Below, in pieces: positions 6,597-64,000 of a DNA stretch of 64,000 nt. Both the position numbers and the translations under genes were made by a program. The stretch is from the NCBI GenBank assembly GCA_000002435.2, contig CM018793.1. One strand, given 5' to 3'. Numbering within the stretch: the first letter of the stretch is position 1; each line of letters opens with the position of its first letter. The DNA is from Giardia intestinalis (Eukaryota). Below the pieces are notes generated by a model, which did not search any database, had not been told where the DNA came from, and saw only the letters and a program-made list of their open reading frames with translations.

Positions 6597-6669
6597 GGCC
6601 CACGACGGGACTCGAACCCGCGACCTATAGCTTAGAAGGCTACCACTCTATCCACTGAGCTACGCGGGC
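6597..6669 (-). tRNA. tRNA-Arg (anticodon UCU), 73 nt, no intron, no encoded CCA
   Basis: Reverse complement is GCCCGCGTAGCTCAGTGGATAGAGTGGTAGCCTTCTAAGCTATAGGTCGCGGGTTCGAGTCCCGTCGTGGGCC. The 7-bp acceptor stem is GCCCGCG/CGTGGGC with one G-U pair. D-arm GCTC...GAGT. Anticodon stem GTAGC/GCTAT with loop CTTCTAA, so the anticodon is TCT. Variable loop AGGTC. T-arm GCGGG-TTCGAGT-CCCGT. Discriminator C. A-box (TAGCTCAGTGG) and B-box (GGTTCGAGTCC) are present. Confidence 0.85.
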
Positions 6670-10000: not shown

Positions 10001-10456
10001 ATGGGAACTGGTGCGAAGCAGAAAGACGCATCAAAAGCGACGCCATCGGGGCACAAGGAGCGGCCCAACAAGTCTGACAAGCGTAAGAACTCTTTCAAGG
10101 CGTCCCATGCAAAGCGGCTGGAAGATGCAATAGCCTGGATGTATCACTGGCACACAGACAGAAGCACCTGGACCTTCGACAAGAAGCAGCAGACGTTGCT
10201 TGTGCAGGCATGGATGGACTCAGAGCGCATGCCCAAGGACACCTTTGCCGTCTTCTGCCTTTTTGCCGCGGGAAGTGAGGCGGAAGCCTTCAAGCGCCGC
10301 TTGTTGCAGGAGGCAGAAGTCATGCTCACTCGCTACAGAAACAACAAGGAAAACGAAAATCTCCGGAGGCAAGCAAAGAGGGCAGTCAAATTGAAGGCCG
10401 CCCTCAGCAGCGGGAAGAATGATCCTGAGGCCCAGCTCCTGGCGGACGAGGTATAG
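10001..10456 (+). CDS. WKF-domain protein (C7orf50 / DUF2373-like), 151 aa
   Basis: ATG at 10001. Basic Lys-rich N-terminus (KQKDASKATPSGHKERPNKSDKRKNSFKASHAKR). Core WTFDKKQQTLLVQAWMDSERMPKDTFAVFCLFAAGSEAEAFKRRLLQEAEVML matches human C7orf50 [52 protein letters not shown] by pattern. AGTAAAT overlaps the TAG stop. Confidence 0.5.
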   Translation: MGTGAKQKDASKATPSGHKERPNKSDKRKNSFKASHAKRLEDAIAWMYHWHTDRSTWTFDKKQQTLLVQAWMDSERMPKDTFAVFCLFAAGSEAEAFKRRLLQEAEVMLTRYRNNKENENLRRQAKRAVKLKAALSSGKNDPEAQLLADEV

Positions 10457-10461
10457 TAAAT
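10455..10461 (+). promoter_or_regulatory. AGTAAAT poly(A) signal overlapping the TAG stop of the WKF-domain gene
   Basis: gtatAGTAAATgag. TAG is at 10454-10456. Confidence 0.45.
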
Positions 10462-10468
10462 GAGACGC

Positions 10469-19993: not shown

Positions 19994-20091
19994 GTACGAA
20001 CACAGCGCTAGTTACATAACAATAAGGATAACAATAAGGCAAGGACGTTTATTCTACCTAAGATGCACTGCCAGCTTCCCACCAAGCAGTC

Positions 20092-20604
20092 TTACCAGTT
20101 TCCCTTGGCCTCTTCCTCTGCAATAGCGTCCCTCCAGGCATCCACTGCCCGTTTAAGATCGAAGGCTATGTTGTACAACGTGTTGTCTGTATATTGCTTA
20201 AACGATGGTAGCTTGTATATGTAGTTCTCATCGTTGATATAGTAATACATTTCACATGGATAGCTCAGCAGCCCCCCTTCGGGCTCCACGCAATACCCAG
20301 CTATCAAGGCCCGAGATGGGGTATAATCCTGGATCTTGTACAAAATCACCTTCCCACTGTCCAACTGCTCTCTCGTGAACTCCTCCGAGAGGTGTGACTT
20401 GTCCCTAATCCAGTCCTCGAGTGTTGTCGGTCTCTGATTTTTGGTCTTTATGTTGACGCAGTACTCGTTTTGCTGGCAGAAGGGAGAGTGACGGAAGTAA
20501 GCTAATAGGCGGTCCTGCTCCGTATAGTTCTCACCTGCAAGCTCGTCGTTGTTATTGTAGAGATCGTTGTCGCACCATGAAAGAACCAGCCTCTTGCGGT
20601 CCAT
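20092..20604 (-). CDS. Hypothetical protein, 170 aa
   Basis: ATG at 20604 preceded by cacccaaaaaag. No recognisable domain (MDRKRLVLSWCDNDLYNNNDELAGENYTEQDRLLAYF...). The coding call rests on ORF length, the typical start context and tight packing with its neighbours. Confidence 0.4.
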   Translation of the reverse strand: MDRKRLVLSWCDNDLYNNNDELAGENYTEQDRLLAYFRHSPFCQQNEYCVNIKTKNQRPTTLEDWIRDKSHLSEEFTREQLDSGKVILYKIQDYTPSRALIAGYCVEPEGGLLSYPCEMYYYINDENYIYKLPSFKQYTDNTLYNIAFDLKRAVDAWRDAIAEEEAKGNW

Positions 20605-20662
20605 CTTTTTTGGGTGCTGTTTTCAGACTGTCTTGCAAACTCTCTCACGGGTCTCACGTGAT

Positions 20663-30560: not shown

Positions 30561-30613
30561 TGTCTGTCTCTACCGATTTAAGGTTTTTTTGAGTTTTTTG
30601 AACAAGACCACAA

Positions 30614-31111
30614 ATGTCCCTTGTTCAGGCCATGGGCACACGTGTCCTTTTAGACCTGACCAAGAACACACTTGGCGGTGGGGCGGTTATATCATCGTGC
30701 AGCCAGAGCTGTGCGTCCTGTCCTAGTGCCGGTTCATGTGGCGCGACCAGCGGCTACGGAGGCTTTGGAAGCGACAATGGAGTGACATTCACGACTCAGA
30801 CAACTTCAGGCACAAACACAGGTATTACTGCAGGTACACTGGGTGCTGCTGTCGTACACCAGAGTGGCCAAATGACCGTCAACGATGCACAGCAAGGCAA
30901 TAACTGTAACATAGGTCAAGAATTTCTTCCCGTGCAGGATATTAAGGCAAGACCTTTAGACTATTCGCGGACGAAGAAAGGCCCCTTTGACTTTTTGGCA
31001 GGAAGGGGGTCTTTCCGGCACCATTCACAAGAACAGCCAAGACATGAAGCAACCTCTTCTCAATCAGGAGACGTCGTTGCAGACGTGCTCAGAGACCTGG
31101 GGCTGCTCTAG
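30614..31111 (+). CDS. Small Gly/Ser/Thr-rich hypothetical protein, 165 aa
   Basis: ATG at 30614, 53 bp from and divergent to the ATG at 30560. A T-rich spacer lies between them (ggtttttttgagttttttgaacaagaccacaa). The composition is low-complexity (GGGAVISSCSQSCASCPSAGSCGATSGYGGFGSDNG), so the coding status is uncertain. Confidence 0.3.
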   Translation: MSLVQAMGTRVLLDLTKNTLGGGAVISSCSQSCASCPSAGSCGATSGYGGFGSDNGVTFTTQTTSGTNTGITAGTLGAAVVHQSGQMTVNDAQQGNNCNIGQEFLPVQDIKARPLDYSRTKKGPFDFLAGRGSFRHHSQEQPRHEATSSQSGDVVADVLRDLGLL

Positions 31112-31142
31112 GAACTGCAAAAGGCGCTAAAAAATCGCTCGG

Positions 31143-50433: not shown

Positions 50434-50638
50434 GCTTTTTTGTCCTGACTCGGATTTTGTGCTGAATTTACATGTTGCTATTTATGAAACAAAGCTCACG
50501 CATACACAGGCTCCGGAAAAATAAATGTAGCGAACCCACGCGCAAGCGTTGCTACGAGGCGATGGAGACAAAAGCAGTTACGTTCGCAACTCTCTGAGGG
50601 TTCCTGATGCTTCCTTGGATGTCCGAGCCTTCCTTTAC

Positions 50639-53600
50639 TTAATCGACCGGCTGCAGGTGCGGCAGCATCGCCTTCAGGGCGGCTCCGCAGTCTTGCAGGT
50701 TCGTCGACATGTGCGCCGTCCGGAGGCGCGCGTACGCCTTTCCGTTGACCTCTGATTCACAGTGCAGTGAGTTGAGCCTCGTCGTCACGGAGCTTACAGA
50801 CGTCGGATGCGCATTGTGGATCGTGGCAAGAGTGATGTCTGTGAGCCGCGCCATTTGCTGGACAGCTAGCAGGGGGTTTTGGTAGACACCAAAGACACCA
50901 AACGACGAGCTTGCCGGGTTCCAGTCAAAGAGGGTGCCGGTCCGCGTGAGTGAATCAAAGACGATCCCCTCTTTCATCAAGGCCACCATAAAGGCCGTTC
51001 TGTTGATGGTCTGAAGGTCGCGATGCCAGAGGAAGGGAAGCGAAAGAACCACCATCGGGGCCTTAGTGATCTGTCGTTTCACAAGGGAAGTGTCATTGCG
51101 ACTTAGAACCCCGTTGATGCTGTCCCACGAGAGGTCTGCAAGGGCCATTGCCGAATAAAGATGGCAGATACCGGGAGTGAACCCGAACGATATGTTAACG
51201 AGAACCGCTGTGCTCCCGCTCTGGCTGGTATAGACGCGGTCGTTGATAGAGGGAGACACGGATTCATCGCCACGCGTTTGCGCATTAAGGCTGGAACAAG
51301 GAGGTCTTGTCCTTGTGGTGCCAAAGACTGTCGGAGACAAAAGGCTATTGAAGTGCGCCACTTCACTGTCATAAACCTTAACACAGTCGCTTGCAGATAA
51401 AACTTGGAAAGGATTCGGGCTGACGCTCATCGACTGCGTGGCCGGCGATCTTATAGACGGGGATGCCGTGGAGGGGAGGGTGCTACGCGTGGAAGTACTT
51501 CCCACGCTTATGTTGCTTAGATGTTGGCTTTCTCCTGCCGAAACCTTCGTACCCTCGGCATAAAGATAGTGGAGGACCACTACGCCGTGAATTCCATAGT
51601 CAATCAGCTTAGCAATAGTGTTGGCTGACTGCCTCTTTAGGGTGAAATAGATAGAGTCTGGAGCAGGTGATATGGTGCCAAAGGACCGTGTAGGAAGATG
51701 CGTCCCTGCCAGTGAGGAAGAAATGTCAACACTAGAGCCCAAGTATGTCACAACGGGCCGCTCGGAAGGTTCTATGTAAATGATAAGCCGCGCAGCCACA
51801 AAGGATTGCTGCAAATCCGCTTTTCTTGCTGATAAGATGTAATAATCGCCCACCCCTAGACTTGAACATATGTTCTTCACCACTCGTTCGTGGGGTTGCT
51901 CTGCATCTGTGATCGGGAGGATGGGATACAGCATGATTCGCCGAGTATGCTTAGACTCTCGTGTAAGACAGTACGATCGCATCCCTGCCAGCCCATACAG
52001 CACAGCTTCTGAAAAGACGTTAGCAAGGCCAGGAGTGAAGGGTGCAATGATGTACTCCGTATCGCTGGAAACCGATCTCTCGTTTCTTAGATACTTGTGG
52101 AGTTCGGAAATAGACTCAACAGCGAAGATTTGCGACTCATGGATGGACGTGAGGACAAGGTCTCTGCAATTAATTCGCTGGCTATGAAGAAGCATTGTTG
52201 TCGGTAACCTGAACGTCCTGGTGAGAGCATAAAGCTCAAAATCCGAGACGGAGTCGATGTTGGAAGAGAAGTATGGCAGAATCTCTAGGTCTTTGGAGCC
52301 TTGTAGTCGCAAGGCTTCCAAGCACACCTTATCAACGGCTCTTTGTAGCTCTTCGATAGTATCTGGAGACGACAGAAGCAGTGAGATGATAGACCCTGTA
52401 TAAGATAGGGTGACAGGGCGGTCGAATGCGTTCGCCTCCAGCGTTGACAAGAGAGTAGGGTGAATAATCACCAGCTTAGTCTTAACAAGAGTGGATAGCT
52501 GAGCTGGGAAAAAGAGGTTTTGATAGTTGCCAGCTAAAGAGGAGCCGTCAGCGTGAGTTGACGCTGAGGCTGCGCCATGCGTAACTGAATCAGGATAGGC
52601 CTCGGTGAAGGGAGTCGGGGAGGTCTGAGAGGCCCGGGGACCTGGCGTATCACTGAGAGTCTTGTTGGCGTGGAGTGGAGAGCTGTGTCTGGAAGGCACC
52701 TCTGGGCTAGGACAGCGCAGCAAGCTGTGGAGCATCTGGTTCCTTTTAAGGAGCATAGACTCTTGGGTAATACCAGTTAGAATAGATTCTATATATGCAA
52801 GAGAGACAGAATGCTCAGCCACAACAACGAGCTTTAGAACAGTTGGGTCGAGTAGGAAGTGAACGAGACTGAGCGGGCAGAAGGAAAAGCCCATGCTCGG
52901 GGTACTGTAGGAGTTGAAGAGAATCGCAGACTCGCCTCCGACGCTTGCGGGCGTAGACAGAAGAACGATGGGTACGGTGAACTTTCGAGGCCGAATCTCT
53001 AGGGCCCCTGTCTGCCGGGACCGCGCATCATCAAAGAGCACCCTTTCTACTCTATCATAGCAGACCGGCATGAAGTAACTAACAATAGGTTCATTGTATT
53101 TATGCTTAGAGAAGATAAATGCATCATAAGCCACGCTAGACGAGCGGCGCGCCACGCTCAAGGCACACAACTTGGCCAGGAATGCTTCTTGATGCTTCAA
53201 GAAAGTATTGCGTGCCCTGTCCGCTACCTTTGCACGGCGCTCTGCATAGGCACACCTGGCCAAGGAGCCTCTGTAGTGAGCCTGGAAAGCCAGGGCTGCA
53301 AGCCGGATGGTCACAAACCAAGTGCGCCGAGTGAGCATTCTGTACACAGATTGGACGACCAAGGCTGCTTTCAGTTCGGCTGGCCTATCGGTGCTGAGGG
53401 TTCTGCAGATAGGGTCGGCCACTTGACTGTCTTGAAAATTCGAAGGGCTGGCATGCAACTCAACACTTGCTCCTGCGGTTGTATTGGTCACCGATAAATT
53501 GCTCATGGAAAGACTCGCAGAGTCCTTCAAAGACTGAGTGCTTGAAGCTATATATTTAATGGCGGACTTAGTACTGCTCAAAGGTCCCAGGACATGCATC

Positions 53601-60355: not shown

Positions 60356-61162
60356 CTAAACATCACACACTATAGAGACATGCTCTACTGTTATAGAAAG
60401 CTGCTTAGAAATGAGGTCCCCGATAGCCCATAGGCCTGGCTGTTCCGATCTCCAATGGCCCAGCGCTGCCATGCTAATCCCCCGGTCCCGCGCAGTAGAG
60501 ATAGCGCTCTCCTTGGGCTCTCCAAATATAAATAAATCCACGTCTTCTATCTCGTCAATCAGGCCTGAAGAGCCTCCAGAACAAATATAGACGCGCTTTG
60601 GTGGGCTATTAATTGCAAAGGAAGAATTAAACGGCCAAACTCTTGTACCGTAAAACGTCGACGAACAAAGATCATTTTGTTGAGGAGTGCGTGTATCCAC
60701 CTCGTAGGCCCTCCTATCACAAAACTCGCTCAACCTTCGTATTATCTCCAATCCAGACAGATTGCCGGGATTTTCACAGTAGCAGCCGCACGAGTAAAAC
60801 TTCTCCAGCAGAAGCCCCGCAGCCTTACAGAGCTGGGCATTGTGTCCAATAATAGGATGAGCATCCATCGGGAGGTGATATGCAAATAGGTTTATGTCAT
60901 GTTTGAGGAGAGGAGTCAACCGCTTCTTTATCGAATCGGTTACTCGAAGGAATGATTTCCCAAAGAACCCATGATGCACAAGTATTGCATCAGCGTTTCT
61001 ATGGACAGCTTCTGCGATAAGGTCACCACAGAGGGACACACCTGTCACCAAGGTCCTAATTTCCTTTCTTCCTTCTACCTGGAGTCCGTTGTACTGACCA
61101 TCTGGCTGCTCTTCATACACCTCCGACAGAAACTGCAACAACTGGTCTCTGGAAACTGACAT
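60356..61162 (-). CDS. NIF3-family (DUF34, dinuclear metal centre) protein, 268 aa
   Basis: ATG at 61162 with cattgtaaataaaaggatagcat upstream. NIF3 signatures: ADAILVHHGFF (HHP-type metal site), LFAYHLPMDAHPIIGHNAQL and AALGHWRSEQPG (C-terminal His/Glu metal ligands). Confidence 0.7.
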   Translation of the reverse strand: MSVSRDQLLQFLSEVYEEQPDGQYNGLQVEGRKEIRTLVTGVSLCGDLIAEAVHRNADAILVHHGFFGKSFLRVTDSIKKRLTPLLKHDINLFAYHLPMDAHPIIGHNAQLCKAAGLLLEKFYSCGCYCENPGNLSGLEIIRRLSEFCDRRAYEVDTRTPQQNDLCSSTFYGTRVWPFNSSFAINSPPKRVYICSGGSSGLIDEIEDVDLFIFGEPKESAISTARDRGISMAALGHWRSEQPGLWAIGDLISKQLSITVEHVSIVCDV

Positions 61163-64000
61163 ATGCTATCCTTTTATTTACAATGTGTCGTTTGAACGTA
61201 TTTTTCTATGAAAACTGAAGTTACAATACAATGTGTCCCTAGGAGAGGCGCCCGCCGCCCTCTGCCGTCTGCCCCGTGGGCCTCTCGAGTGCCCGCGAGG
61301 CGATCCGGCTAGCGTGTCCGCGCCCCTTACGTAGGCAGGGATTCTCGCCGTCTCTGTCCCGCCGCCCTGGGCACCAGCACAGGGTCGCTTGCTGCGCCAT
61401 CGTTGGTGCCTCTCCCGTGCCGAGCCAGGAGCACTGCAACCGCTGCAGCCTCTGTGTCAGGGCGGCCCGCACTGTTTTGTGGGTCCTCCTATGAGGTGCA
61501 AGCCGCGTGGGTGCCCTGATCGAGGTCGGCTAGCTGATCGGAAGCCTGAAGCCGGAATGACAGGCGCTCACAGTCTTCGACAGCTTTTGGTTCTGCTACT
61601 AGGGACAGATACCCACGATGACTATGCCCCCATCAGTTCGAATACAGTTGGCTGCGTTGTGGCCACGTCGTCAGCGTGTATCGGCTGGGCCCCTCAGAAG
61701 CTAAGAGTCTCGTCCAGAGCCCTTTCATCTCTATTTTGTTTCCAGTACTACTCCTGGAAGTCTACTAGCCCTTTGTCATGGTTAATGTGCAATGTTTCTA
61801 AGCTCTCAAGTCGTGGGACAGCCCGAGCACTCCTTGCCTTTCCCACTTCCTAGCAGGTTCACAAGCTGAGTTAGAGACGGCCGATTCTCCTGGCCCACAA
61901 CTAATAGACGCTGTACTAGCTCTACTCAGCTGCGCCTTCGGCTCTGTTTAGGCCAAGCTCCCAGTTCCCTGGAGGGACACCCTCATTCCCCATATCTTTA
62001 ATAAAGGCTAGAGCATTCATAGCCATACGTTCATGTAAAATATAACGCATGCTCCAAATACTCGAGGTGGTTATGCCCTTTCCTACTCCATGCCCCCGGG
62101 ACTGTATGCATTAGCATGACTTCAAAATATGCTCTGTTGAGCCTATCTTTTGGAGCACAGAAAACTAAAAGAACGGAGCCATGTTTTCGCCATGATCGAA
62201 CTCGGTTACGACTAGATATACTGTACTGCGACAGAGGAAAGCTCTCCATTAGAGTGTCTTTTCTCAGACACGTGAAATGCGCCATCAGAGCCGAAATCCG
62301 ACGAACCATCTCGAGGGCTTTGGCCTCTTGGATGGCCATTCTCCACTGTCTGAAGAACCTTATTGCGTCTTTAAGAGCAGACTTATAACATTGCATGCAC
62401 AGGCAAAAGGTTCTTTGTTGTGCAATACCTGTTTGTATTCAAAGGGATGTAAAGGCTTGAAGAGCTGCATAGTACACAGGTCGGCCTCAGTGGCGTCCGG
62501 AATAATCCCCTTCAATTAGATACCCCTACCTACCTCGTCCAATGTGTCTTTCAATGCATAAACAGTTCTATACAATCCTTTGCCAATCACTATAGCCAGC
62601 TTAATCATCGGATCATCACTCGTTTCAGTTTTCTCAGACATTTTTAGTTGATACTCGATGAGCTGACCTAATTGGTAGTGCCAAAGGTAGCATGAAGTTT
62701 GTCTGCTTTGCATATGGAAGGATCTGTTATATCCTTACAGAATTTGGCAGTGCAATGTATAATTACCAACAAGGATCTGTAAAGCAAATAGTCACAAGTT
62801 TTGAAGGATTTAGCAAGACTAAAAGTCACTCTCAGACCTCAACTTGAGTATAAGTGATGATCCTATCGAGAACTAAAGGTCCATAAACGTAACGGAACAG
62901 GCGAATAGTCCGATAATTATTTCTTCTTGAAACGACAGATTTTTTCATGCTTCTAAGTGATTAAACTAAAGACAAATTCTAGGCTAAATAAGAGCCCCGG
63001 AATCCCTTGAAGCATAAGCTATCCTATTACTGGGTTATTATAGAATCTAACTAACTCTAGTACTGTGGAATGGCAACCAGGTTTAAAGTAAGGGAAGATC
63101 TATGTGCTTACAGACTTTAGGCCCACGGGATAGGGGTAGCAAATCATATATTTGAAGCTAATTGTTTGCCATCTTATCTTCTAGCTGATTCACAGTAATG
63201 TGTATCCTTCGCACCGCAAATGGTTTCTAGTATCAAGAAAATGCATAGCAACTCTACCGGGCTACAGCTAAAATAAAGCAAGAAGCAAAGTCCACGGATA
63301 TATGCCCAACTATACATAGTTATCATAATTGGCTAGGGCCTCGCGGATTACACAGTGCCTTTGCGATGTGCAAGATAACATCGTATAGTAATGTGCACTC
63401 ATCCATAAAGTAGCACGCATTATTTGTACATATTGATGTAGCAGGGCCTGGTATCTCCAATTATCCGGATAGCTTTCTAACTCGACTAGTAATAAGTTGC
63501 AATATCTTTATTCTTCGCCAAATGGCCAGCATTTTCTGAGGGTCTAGACCAGGAATAGTGAAGTCAGCATTCAATTGAGTACTTGTACACTGCACATAGG
63601 GTGGGTTGGTCTCTACGCATCCAAAGTTTGTAGCGGAAACTCATTGCGTAACTATCTAAGAATCCTATGCAAAATCGATAGCTCTTAACGCAGATAGGCT
63701 ATCTTTTCAAATCTACAAATCGCTAAGATCCCCTTTCTAAAATCTTCGACATCACAGACCCCATGCCAGGCAGCAAACCTTGTGCTACATAATATGAGAG
63801 CCTCTAGGATGTGTAAACACCTGTGCGGCTACAGCGACGTATCTCCATTCACAGGTGCCAGTAGAACCGATGGACACTGGTGAAGCATATCGGTGGGTGG
63901 AAGATGTAGTGAGTCAGGCATTCTGTATACTGTCATTCACCACAGCTCCCGTAGTGAGCCATGGGGAGCCTGAAGACTGGTGCTCTATGGCGGCGTGAGT
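61163..64000. other. ~2.8-kb region without a credible protein-coding ORF; contains a ~300-bp GC-rich island (about 61240-61560) followed by AT-richer sequence
   Basis: All six frames were read. The longest ORFs are 154 aa (61389..61853 +, an Arg/Pro/Cys-rich translation of GC-rich DNA) and 121 aa (62031..62396 -). Nothing runs off the right edge for more than ~30 codons. This contrasts with over 95% coding density in the preceding 61 kb. Confidence 0.5.
62031..62396 (-). CDS. Possible small ORF (121 aa), questionable
   Basis: The ATG at 62396 is a true ATG (MQCYKSALKDAIRFFRQWRMAIQEAKALEMVRRISALMAHF...). The start context is only moderately AT-rich and there is no similarity to anything I recognise. 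It may instead be a fragment of a decayed gene. Confidence 0.15.
   Translation of the reverse strand: MQCYKSALKDAIRFFRQWRMAIQEAKALEMVRRISALMAHFTCLRKDTLMESFPLSQYSISSRNRVRSWRKHGSVLLVFCAPKDRLNRAYFEVMLMHTVPGAWSRKGHNHLEYLEHALYFT

Follow-up and report, generated by a model that had tools for sequence, protein, structure and literature searches.

The DNA analysed here, a window of 64,000 nucleotides from Giardia intestinalis (contig CM018793.1), comes from a WB-type lineage of assemblage A, and the NIF3 protein encoded in it has the same sequence as XP_001708805 of strain WB. NIF3 is encoded on the minus strand with its ATG at 61162. Beyond this codon, from 61163 to 64000, the longest ORF in any frame is 154 aa (with a TTG start), and the longest with an ATG start is 121 aa. 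When ORFs of at least 180 aa are taken as a proxy for genes, the resulting gap of 2838 bp far exceeds any other in the window, the next largest being 669 and 582 bp. A preliminary description of the window had reported a stretch free of ORFs longer than 154 aa at this position and a GC-rich island within it, and both observations hold: this is the largest gap in the window, and the island (61239-61560) is 68.3% GC, compared with 49.0% for the whole window. Short direct repeats had also been described in the island, but it contains no direct repeat of 12 nt or more; TRF finds only an array of 2.7 copies of 7 nt at 61539-61557 (score 31). A search for repeats of at least 40 nt across the window, together with local and tandem repeat searches, gave only chance-level matches.

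Base composition changes along the region. The 76 nt that lie directly upstream of the NIF3 ATG (61163-61238) are 30% GC. This intergenic spacer, which aligns with those of assemblages E and B (66 nt in B), presumably carries the NIF3 promoter. GC content is then 68.3% over 61239-61560, 47.6% over 61561-62641 and 41.6% over 62642-64000. A tRNA scan of the region gave nothing. Contigs assembled independently from Illumina reads match the window at 100% identity over 60640-64000 (L029) and 60914-64000 (L030); thus, its sequence is no assembly artefact, and the lesions described below are real. Contigs L032-L035 also match at 100% identity from starts between 61340 and 61441 through 64000, and L013-L015 do so from 61237 up to ~62600-62644.

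Homology and decay of the sequence beside NIF3

The minus strand between 62641 and 61239 is very probably a dead Nek-GL4 kinase gene, behind which its old upstream spacer extends to 64000. In assemblage B, an intact gene for a 582-aa protein with kinase and ankyrin domains ends 66 nt upstream of NIF3, and this protein matches the minus strand of the window from 62641 to 61845 by tblastn (E 4e-24) and the corresponding locus of assemblage E (E 3e-29). After repair of the reading frame, the assemblage A kinase peptide and the B protein share 42% identity across 277 aa (E 5e-52); in the glycine-loop region, for example, IGKGLYRTVY (repaired A) aligns with IGRGLYGTVY (B). The other end of the gene can also be recognized. 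The C-terminal end and stop codon of the A copy align with those of B at 61239-61241, and the C-terminal peptide TALERPTGQTAEGGGRLS in A, just before the stop, matches TALDHARAEGRQAVVAFLS in B. Among the origins that had been proposed for the region, a pseudogene is therefore upheld for 61239-62641: translated comparison has revealed a frameshifted known gene, the Nek kinase that is intact at the syntenic position in assemblage B, and the copy in the window contains many stops and frameshifts.

The pseudogene runs from a former ATG at 62641-62639 to a former TAG stop codon at 61241-61239 and measures 1403 bp, compared with 1749 bp for the intact B gene. Three parts, all on the minus strand, can be distinguished. 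What remains of the kinase domain (61845-62641, B codons 1-273), delimited by tblastn HSPs and coordinate mapping, contains listed ORF fragments of 65, 51 and 121 aa. A linker or coiled-coil remnant (61561-61844, B codons 274-370) follows from a MAFFT alignment of B, A and E and coordinate mapping, and coordinate mapping likewise places a putative remnant of TALM-ankyrin repeats (B codons 371-583) at 61239-61560, that is, in the GC-rich island. Pfam recognizes Pkinase at residues 17-267 (E 5.8e-34) and Ank_2 (E 9.8e-64) in the intact B protein. It recognizes neither a kinase nor an ankyrin domain in six-frame translations of 61218-65915 or in the repaired peptide, and assignment of the A copy to the family thus rests on homology to one intact ortholog. 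On the classification of Manning et al. (2011, PMC3218828), the parent gene belongs to subfamily GL4, since the sequence of the B ortholog appears as GK453_GS_GL4 in their kinase alignment (supplementary file 5). When the repaired peptide was used in a word-indexed search, the only matches were ORF fragments of other Giardia A assemblies, and the B gene was missed; none of the pseudogene's ORFs is an NCBI protein.

The position of the locus is shared as well. In A, E and B alike, the Nek locus lies directly upstream of NIF3 and in the same orientation. On the other side of NIF3 are a 1031-aa gene, WRKY, a 1199-aa gene and dynein, in an order that is kept in A, E, B and G. muris.

Measured against the B frame, the A copy has six in-frame stops and 26 frameshifting (non-triplet) indels, and the E copy 13 stops and 21 non-triplet indels. 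The indel counts are approximate in each case, because the A-B alignment has ~58% nucleotide identity and is noisy in the ankyrin part. A and E both have stops at B codons 42 and 148, and 13 of their indels are identical, including 10 that shift the frame; these common lesions indicate that the gene was dead before A and E separated. Decay since then shows no coding or other constraint. A-E identity in the pseudogene is 69.0%, and that of 61300-64030, taken per 100 nt, is 57-79% (~70% overall). The neutral benchmark, identity at the fourfold-degenerate sites of the neighbours, is 70.1% in NIF3 and 71.6% in the 1031-aa gene. Since region and benchmark agree, the region evolves neutrally, and any residual function is probably absent from it.

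The AT-rich tract and the repeated block

Upstream of the dead Nek gene, from 62642 to 64000 and on to ~64091 outside the window, lies an AT-rich non-coding tract that contains no ORF above 53 aa and no Pfam, Rfam or repeat signal. It is homologous to assemblage E throughout (57-77% identity per 100 nt), and an A/E profile matches the ~310 nt upstream of the B ATG together with the first codons (E 3.7e-8; ~62611-62960 in the window). In assemblage B, the live Nek gene also has an ORF-free tract upstream, at least 700 nt long and 32-43% GC. The homology to E, the ~320 nt of B and the absence of any other signal support a reading of the tract, from its sequence, as the ancestral and unusually long upstream spacer of the Nek gene.

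Nek has a long AT-rich tract without ORFs beside it in A, E and B and at each of the two loci described below, which is unusual given the very short spacers of this genome. The tract might then be a functional chromosomal or regulatory element that tolerates drift, such as an extended promoter or enhancer, an origin of replication or a hotspot of recombination, and its best conserved part relative to B is indeed the first ~30 nt upstream of the former ATG. However, A-E divergence equals the neutral benchmark along the entire tract, with no conserved sub-block; similarity to B is undetectable beyond ~320 nt; and the tract has neither a composition skew switch nor a repeat architecture. A functional element of this kind is highly improbable. 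A literature search for centromere mapping in Giardia gave nothing relevant.

The tract and the pseudogene belong to a larger repeated unit. Nine of ten NIF3-bearing short-read contigs end exactly at 61266, one of them in at least 20 samples. Three contigs begin exactly at 61237, and five (L011, L012, L026, L028 and L031) join the sequence from 61237 onwards to another flank. No differences from the window are found in L011 and L012 over 61237-64000, or in L026 up to its end at 64518. Contig junctions thus define a block whose left boundary, at 61237, is 2 nt past the Nek stop codon and which fills the window to 64000. The full block, 61237 to ~64091, recurs with 100% identity, tail-to-tail with the 3' end of a different gene; further branch points lie outside the window at 64091 and 64518. 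In assemblage B, the ortholog of the gene at the second junction encodes a coiled-coil protein of 602 aa and abuts the live Nek; the flank protein shares 72.7% identity with the product of this B gene. A homolog search with the 602-like flank peptide gave no matches. One B contig (L037) is exactly the 2713-bp repeat unit. Nek and its upstream tract therefore form a block of ~2.8 kb at two loci, one beside NIF3 and the other beside the 602-aa gene, with Nek dead in A and alive in B.

Both junctions are likely to sit in one genome. If so, the two A copies are probably identical through gene conversion or very recent re-copying. B has both types of junction as well, yet the copies are identical; the arrangement therefore looks old, which suggests homogenisation rather than a simple recent copy. 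As a tentative extension, which we consider possible but doubtful, the block could be a conversion-active dispersed repeat that has occupied the same two loci since before the A/B split and has been homogenised since; in A/E, the dead allele would have been copied over the live one, so that gene conversion would have spread the pseudogene. Within such a unit, it may be the long AT-rich tract that is prone to recombination. Giardia is tetraploid and is not known to reproduce sexually. An arrangement of the two copies as arms of one inverted repeat (palindrome) was considered and rejected, both because A/E homology beyond the block is collinear and not reverse-complemented and because the end of L011 does not re-enter an arm.

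Sharp boundaries and at least two genomic contexts are also what one might see if the repeated block had arisen by transposition and all or part of the region, especially 62642-64000, were a decayed mobile element, for example a dead non-LTR retrotransposon such as GilD. Dead retrotransposon copies have been reported in Giardia, according to the title of Arkhipova & Morrison 2001 (cited in PMC7000408), and the extra branch points at 64091 and 64518 could be counted in favor of a mobile element. But no terminal or internal repeats were found, and six-frame Pfam searches of 61218-65915 (window plus L011) at E<=5 gave no reverse transcriptase, endonuclease or other domain, a search whose sensitivity is low, as the dead kinase also escaped it. 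Furthermore, the tract is syntenic in A, E and (over ~320 nt) B, upstream of the same Nek. The boundary of the block only 2 nt past the Nek stop codon and the repetition of the Nek-plus-upstream unit in B, where the gene is live, argue for a gene-containing segmental duplication and not a transposon, and we regard a mobile element as highly unlikely. Two other identities were rejected: a VSP origin (neither the CRGKA and GGCY motifs nor CxxC density gives a VSP-like signal) and relics of the G. muris NIF3 neighbours (tblastn of DNA pol epsilon B, a 1043-aa protein, His_Phos and an Ank protein found none in the region).

Origin of the GC-rich island

The composition of the island has a counterpart in the live gene. 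In the intact B gene, all six TALM-type repeats lie in codons 371-583, and GC content is 62-68% over this ankyrin part, because the repeats are rich in Ala, Gly, Arg and Leu, compared with 39-50% in the kinase part. The averages for B (65.7% in the ankyrin part, 45.9% in the kinase part and 37.7% in the upstream tract) mirror the profile of A (68.3, 47.6 and 41.6%). Deletions of 98, 43, 82 and 51 nt have shortened the A island, within which the 50 nt at 61396-61445 still match B at 78% of nucleotides. Possible ankyrin remnants can be discerned (QATLCW in A, for instance, against KTALMW in B), and no A repeat is intact enough for Pfam. On these sequence comparisons, the island is taken to be leftover ankyrin-repeat coding sequence and no RNA gene.

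The preliminary description had favored a structured non-coding RNA gene at ~61240-61560. GC-richness is common among Giardia ncRNAs, the island has it in contrast to its AT-rich flanks, and assemblage E retains the island at the same place. However, the island can be aligned codon by codon with the ankyrin repeats of a live gene whose GC content there is the same, and the RNA reading fails every one of four tests: Rfam, folding, the 3' motif and conservation. Rfam 15, searched over the whole window at gathering thresholds and permissively (E<=10) over 61000-64000, finds nothing in the region under the former setting; under the latter, it gives zero families for the island and, in the region, only an S15 leader (E 2.1), which is a chance-level match. 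The minimum free energy of the island is no better than that of shuffled sequences on either strand (z-scores for 61237-61560 of -0.89 on the plus strand and -0.16 on the minus strand). The 12-nt motif for 3' end processing of Giardia ncRNAs, HCMTTYHHTHAA, is absent from 61163-64000; its single match in the window, at 50631-50642, is at a real snoRNA, GlsR2 (located by Rfam at 50526-50631), which serves as a positive control. Finally, the A and E islands are 71-73% identical, which equals the value at fourfold-degenerate sites and is thus no higher than neutral. An RNA gene at this position has almost no chance of being the correct explanation.

Proposed history and comparison with known systems

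In the history that we propose, a Nek-GL4 gene would have stood just upstream of NIF3 and been transcribed in the same direction. It would have encoded a kinase domain at the N terminus, then a coiled-coil linker and, at the C terminus, six TALM-ankyrin repeats. Assemblage B still has this gene intact; in the common ancestor of A and E it would have been disabled, after which stops, frameshifts and deletions would have accumulated at the neutral rate. The region would then be a genomic fossil rather than a working element.

The finding is an ordinary one, of little importance beyond annotation. An apparent anomaly of the very compact WB genome becomes one more casualty of the fast-turning Nek-GL4 family, and what is gained is its exact coordinates, the identity of its parent and a lower limit on the age of the loss, which preceded the A/E split. 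Two points may be useful elsewhere. In a Giardia gene desert, a GC-rich island can be what ankyrin repeats have left behind in base composition and not an RNA gene, and such relics, which Pfam and word-indexed searches can miss, are found by synteny-guided comparison with another assemblage.

Genes for snoRNAs and snRNAs in Giardia carry a 12-nt 3' processing motif (Hudson et al. 2012, PMC3510501). The island resembles Giardia ncRNA genes only in being GC-rich relative to its flanks; it has no such motif, Rfam match, excess folding stability or above-neutral conservation. The B Nek, GL50581_4240 (EES98509.1) / KWX13230.1, is the positional ortholog of the pseudogene beside NIF3 and has a second copy beside the 602-aa gene. 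With GL50581_4240, the start codon, the stop codon and ~320 nt upstream are all alignable. Unlike that intact 582-aa ORF, the A copy is 346 bp shorter and has stops and frameshifts.

Segmental duplications make up 6.9% of the WB genome (Xu et al. 2020, PMC7000408). Like them, the block of ~2.85 kb is 100% identical at two loci, and short-read assemblies break at its edges. Unlike a simple recent WB segmental duplication, it has the same two junction types in assemblage B as well; the identical second copy and the same junctions in B together offer a small, clean case in which to study gene conversion between loci that lie apart.

Manning et al. (2011, PMC3218828) count 30 kinase pseudogenes in strain WB, of which 29 are GL4, and report SAGE expression for at least one of the GL4 pseudogenes. 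The peptide strings of the pseudogene described here are absent from the part of that paper's supplementary text that was searched. It is more decayed than the typical "extendable" GL4 pseudogene, since Pfam no longer sees a kinase domain in it. In other respects it is like the Nek-GL4 pseudogenes of Giardia: its parent gene is classed as GL4 (GK453_GS_GL4) and has the architecture of a kinase with TALM-ankyrin repeats, it is lineage-specific (alive in GS and dead in WB and P15), and it has a near-identical duplicate and a locus at a synteny break.

The ORF gap and the gene it once held

The window is assemblage A, WB-type, and its NIF3 gene (60356-61162, minus strand) encodes a 268-aa protein identical to XP_001708805 of strain WB. 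Rightward of this gene's start codon, the longest ORF is 154 aa, with a TTG start, and ORFs that open with ATG reach at most 121 aa, which bears out the preliminary description of an ORF-free region. If ORFs of 180 aa or longer are taken as a proxy for genes, 61163-64000 is a gap of 2838 bp. The gaps that follow it in size, at 19994-20662, 30561-31142, and 10003-10468 (669, 582, and 466 bp), may hold small genes or spacers. A tRNA-Arg gene (anticodon TCT) is present at 6597-6669 on the minus strand, on which ARAGORN and Rfam agree.

The gap contains what remains of a kinase gene. By tblastn, an assemblage B protein, GL50581_4240 [listed as GK453_GS_GL4 among the kinases aligned by Manning et al. 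2011 (PMC3218828)], matches the minus strand of the window from 62641 to 61845 (E 4e-24), and its residues 21-539 match the assemblage E locus (E 3e-29). When the HSPs are joined, A and B are 42% identical over 277 aa (E 5e-52). The window's short ORFs are fragments of this Nek gene displaced by frameshifts; for example, MSEKTETSDDPMIKLAIVIGKGLYRTVYALKD in A pairs with MSCKAKVVSDLVADLDAVIGRGLYGTVYASRS in B, and AIQEAKALEMVRRIS with AIPEAKALEIVRQIS. Alignment to B places the former ATG at 62641-62639 and the former stop codon, TAG, at 61241-61239, both on the minus strand. Pfam recognizes Pkinase (5.8e-34) and Ank_2 (9.8e-64) in the intact B protein; the repaired A peptide itself lies below Pfam thresholds, and thus six-frame Pfam scans are empty.

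The extent of decay was assessed in a three-way alignment of A, E, and B, read in the B frame. Assemblage A carries 6 in-frame stops and 32 indels (26 non-triplet), and assemblage E carries 13 stops and 25 indels (21 non-triplet). A and E have two stops in common, at B codons 42 and 148, and 13 identical indels, 10 of which are frameshifting; thus, the gene was already disabled in the A/E ancestor. With the tblastn match, these stops and frameshifts confirm the pseudogene that had earlier been listed as one alternative. Identity between A and E is 69.0% in the pseudogene, and 70.1% and 71.6% at fourfold-degenerate sites of NIF3 and of a neighboring 1031-aa gene, respectively. Across 61300-64030, 100-nt bins show A-E identities of 57-79%, and no part stands out as conserved. 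The whole interval is evolving neutrally.

The GC-rich island and the AT-rich tract

The GC content is 68.3% in 61239-61560, 47.6% in 61561-62641, and 41.6% in 62642-64000 (49.0% for the window as a whole). The GC-rich island had therefore been accurately described, apart from its "short direct repeats", which repeat searches place no higher than chance. By coordinate mapping, 61239-61560 corresponds to B codons 371-583, in which all six ankyrin repeats of the TALM type lie. The live gene in B has 39-50% GC in its kinase domain and 62-68% in the ankyrin-repeat part; past a short spacer, the value falls to about 41-42% in the initial part of NIF3, the same profile as that of the window. The island is a compositional ghost of ankyrin-repeat coding sequence, shortened in A by deletions of 98, 43, 82, and 51 nt.

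The tract at 62642-64000 has no ORF longer than 53 aa and is without Pfam, Rfam, or repeat signal; its A-E divergence is neutral. A tract of this kind, free of ORFs, at least 700 nt long, and with 32-43% GC, also precedes the live Nek gene in assemblage B. An A/E profile finds the first ~320 nt of this B tract (E 3.7e-8), and its best-conserved piece lies within ~30 nt of the ATG. We read 62642-64000 as the probable old upstream spacer of the Nek gene, ancestral and unusually long for Giardia, which is the least positively supported part of our account; less probably, the tract may be a decayed element such as GilM, GilT, or GilD.

A structured RNA gene at the island, the reading favored in the preliminary description, is rejected: Rfam finds nothing in the region, the fold z-scores of the island are unremarkable (-0.89 and -0.16), the 12-nt Giardia ncRNA 3' processing motif (PMC3510501) is absent from 61163-64000 in a scan of the 64-kb window, and a frameshifted known gene, the refuting outcome named in advance as pointing to a pseudogene, is present in the form of the dead counterpart of the assemblage B Nek gene. 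The single instance of the motif in the window, TCCTTTACTTAA at 50631-50642, lies directly 3' of the GlsR2 C/D snoRNA (50526-50631, plus strand; Rfam RF02335, 133.9 bits) and is a working positive control for the motif search.

A repeated unit in two contexts

Ten short-read (Logan) contigs from different samples were picked by the exact NIF3 protein. Nine of the ten end exactly at 61266, and one of those ending there is present in at least 20 samples. Contigs retrieved via the 154-aa ORF fall into two groups. The first starts exactly at 61237, giving a 30-nt overlap (61237-61266) with the NIF3 contigs, which is what a k=31 graph gives at a branch. The second has another left flank joined at 61237 and is then identical to the window through 64000. 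Further A contigs bear out both arrangements: L029 and L030 match without a break from NIF3 as far as 64091 (100% identity), and L026, L028, and L031 have the other flank. Such behavior is that of a repeat.

The other left flank seen in A contigs codes for the C-terminal end of a coiled-coil protein. Two isolates of assemblage B, BAH15c1 and SRR445174, have an intact Nek copy tail-to-tail with a 602-aa coiled-coil gene; at its C-terminus, this gene shares 72.7% identity with the A flank, and the spacers align too. Live Nek in B thus has two contexts, NIF3 and the 602-aa gene (B contigs L036 1209-2957 and L023 1001-2749), and both junction types exist in A and B. A word-indexed homolog search (E<=1e-10) with the 150-aa C-terminus of the flank gene (A contig L011 2-451) gave no match; since the 72.7% identical gene sits on B contigs, this probably reflects a limitation of index or coverage, not biology.

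In B the shared unit corresponds exactly to contig L037, whose 2713 bp comprise the Nek gene with 933 nt before it and 31 nt after it; the contig stops at the point of divergence between the NIF3-linked and 602-linked versions. The unit in A begins at 61237, 2 nt beyond the Nek stop codon, and reaches to about 64091. Despite being neutrally evolving pseudogenes, the A copies show 100% identity, which suggests gene conversion or very recent re-copying.

Outside the window, six short-read contigs end exactly at 64091 (L011 3473), and a further branch is seen at 64518 (L011 3900), where L026 ends. Past 64518, L027 and L011 have 42 differences over 346 nt (~88% identity). The right-hand sequence, in which no long ORF or Pfam match was found, is therefore part of a family that is multi-copy and has partly diverged.

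The NIF3 neighborhood across Giardia

Gene order was compared among assemblages A (AI and AII), E (P15), and B (GS, GSB) and G. muris. On the far side of NIF3 the order is kept: the 1031-aa protein, a WRKY protein, a 1199-aa protein, and dynein heavy chain. The neighbor on the Nek side differs among assemblage B, assemblage E, and G. muris. In B, a spacer of 66 nt separates NIF3 from the end of an upstream 582-aa gene that has Pkinase and ankyrin domains. In E, the same side is 5.6 kb with zero called genes, matching window 61512-64034 at ~69% identity (BLASTN). In G. muris, the gene that ends 8 nt before NIF3 is that for DNA polymerase epsilon subunit B (L025 8421-10810), and there is no Nek. 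Synteny between Giardia species thus breaks on the upstream side of NIF3.

In P15, another 2.5 kb (L022 1-2530, 3.0-5.6 kb upstream of NIF3) is ORF-free, with 60% GC; among the sequences compared, it has collinear, nucleotide-level similarity to L011 4168-5200 only, and it may be another decayed gene.

The region at 61163-64000 is an ordinary pseudogene and its spacer, inside a small segmental duplication, and the parent family of the pseudogene is one known for rapid birth and death.
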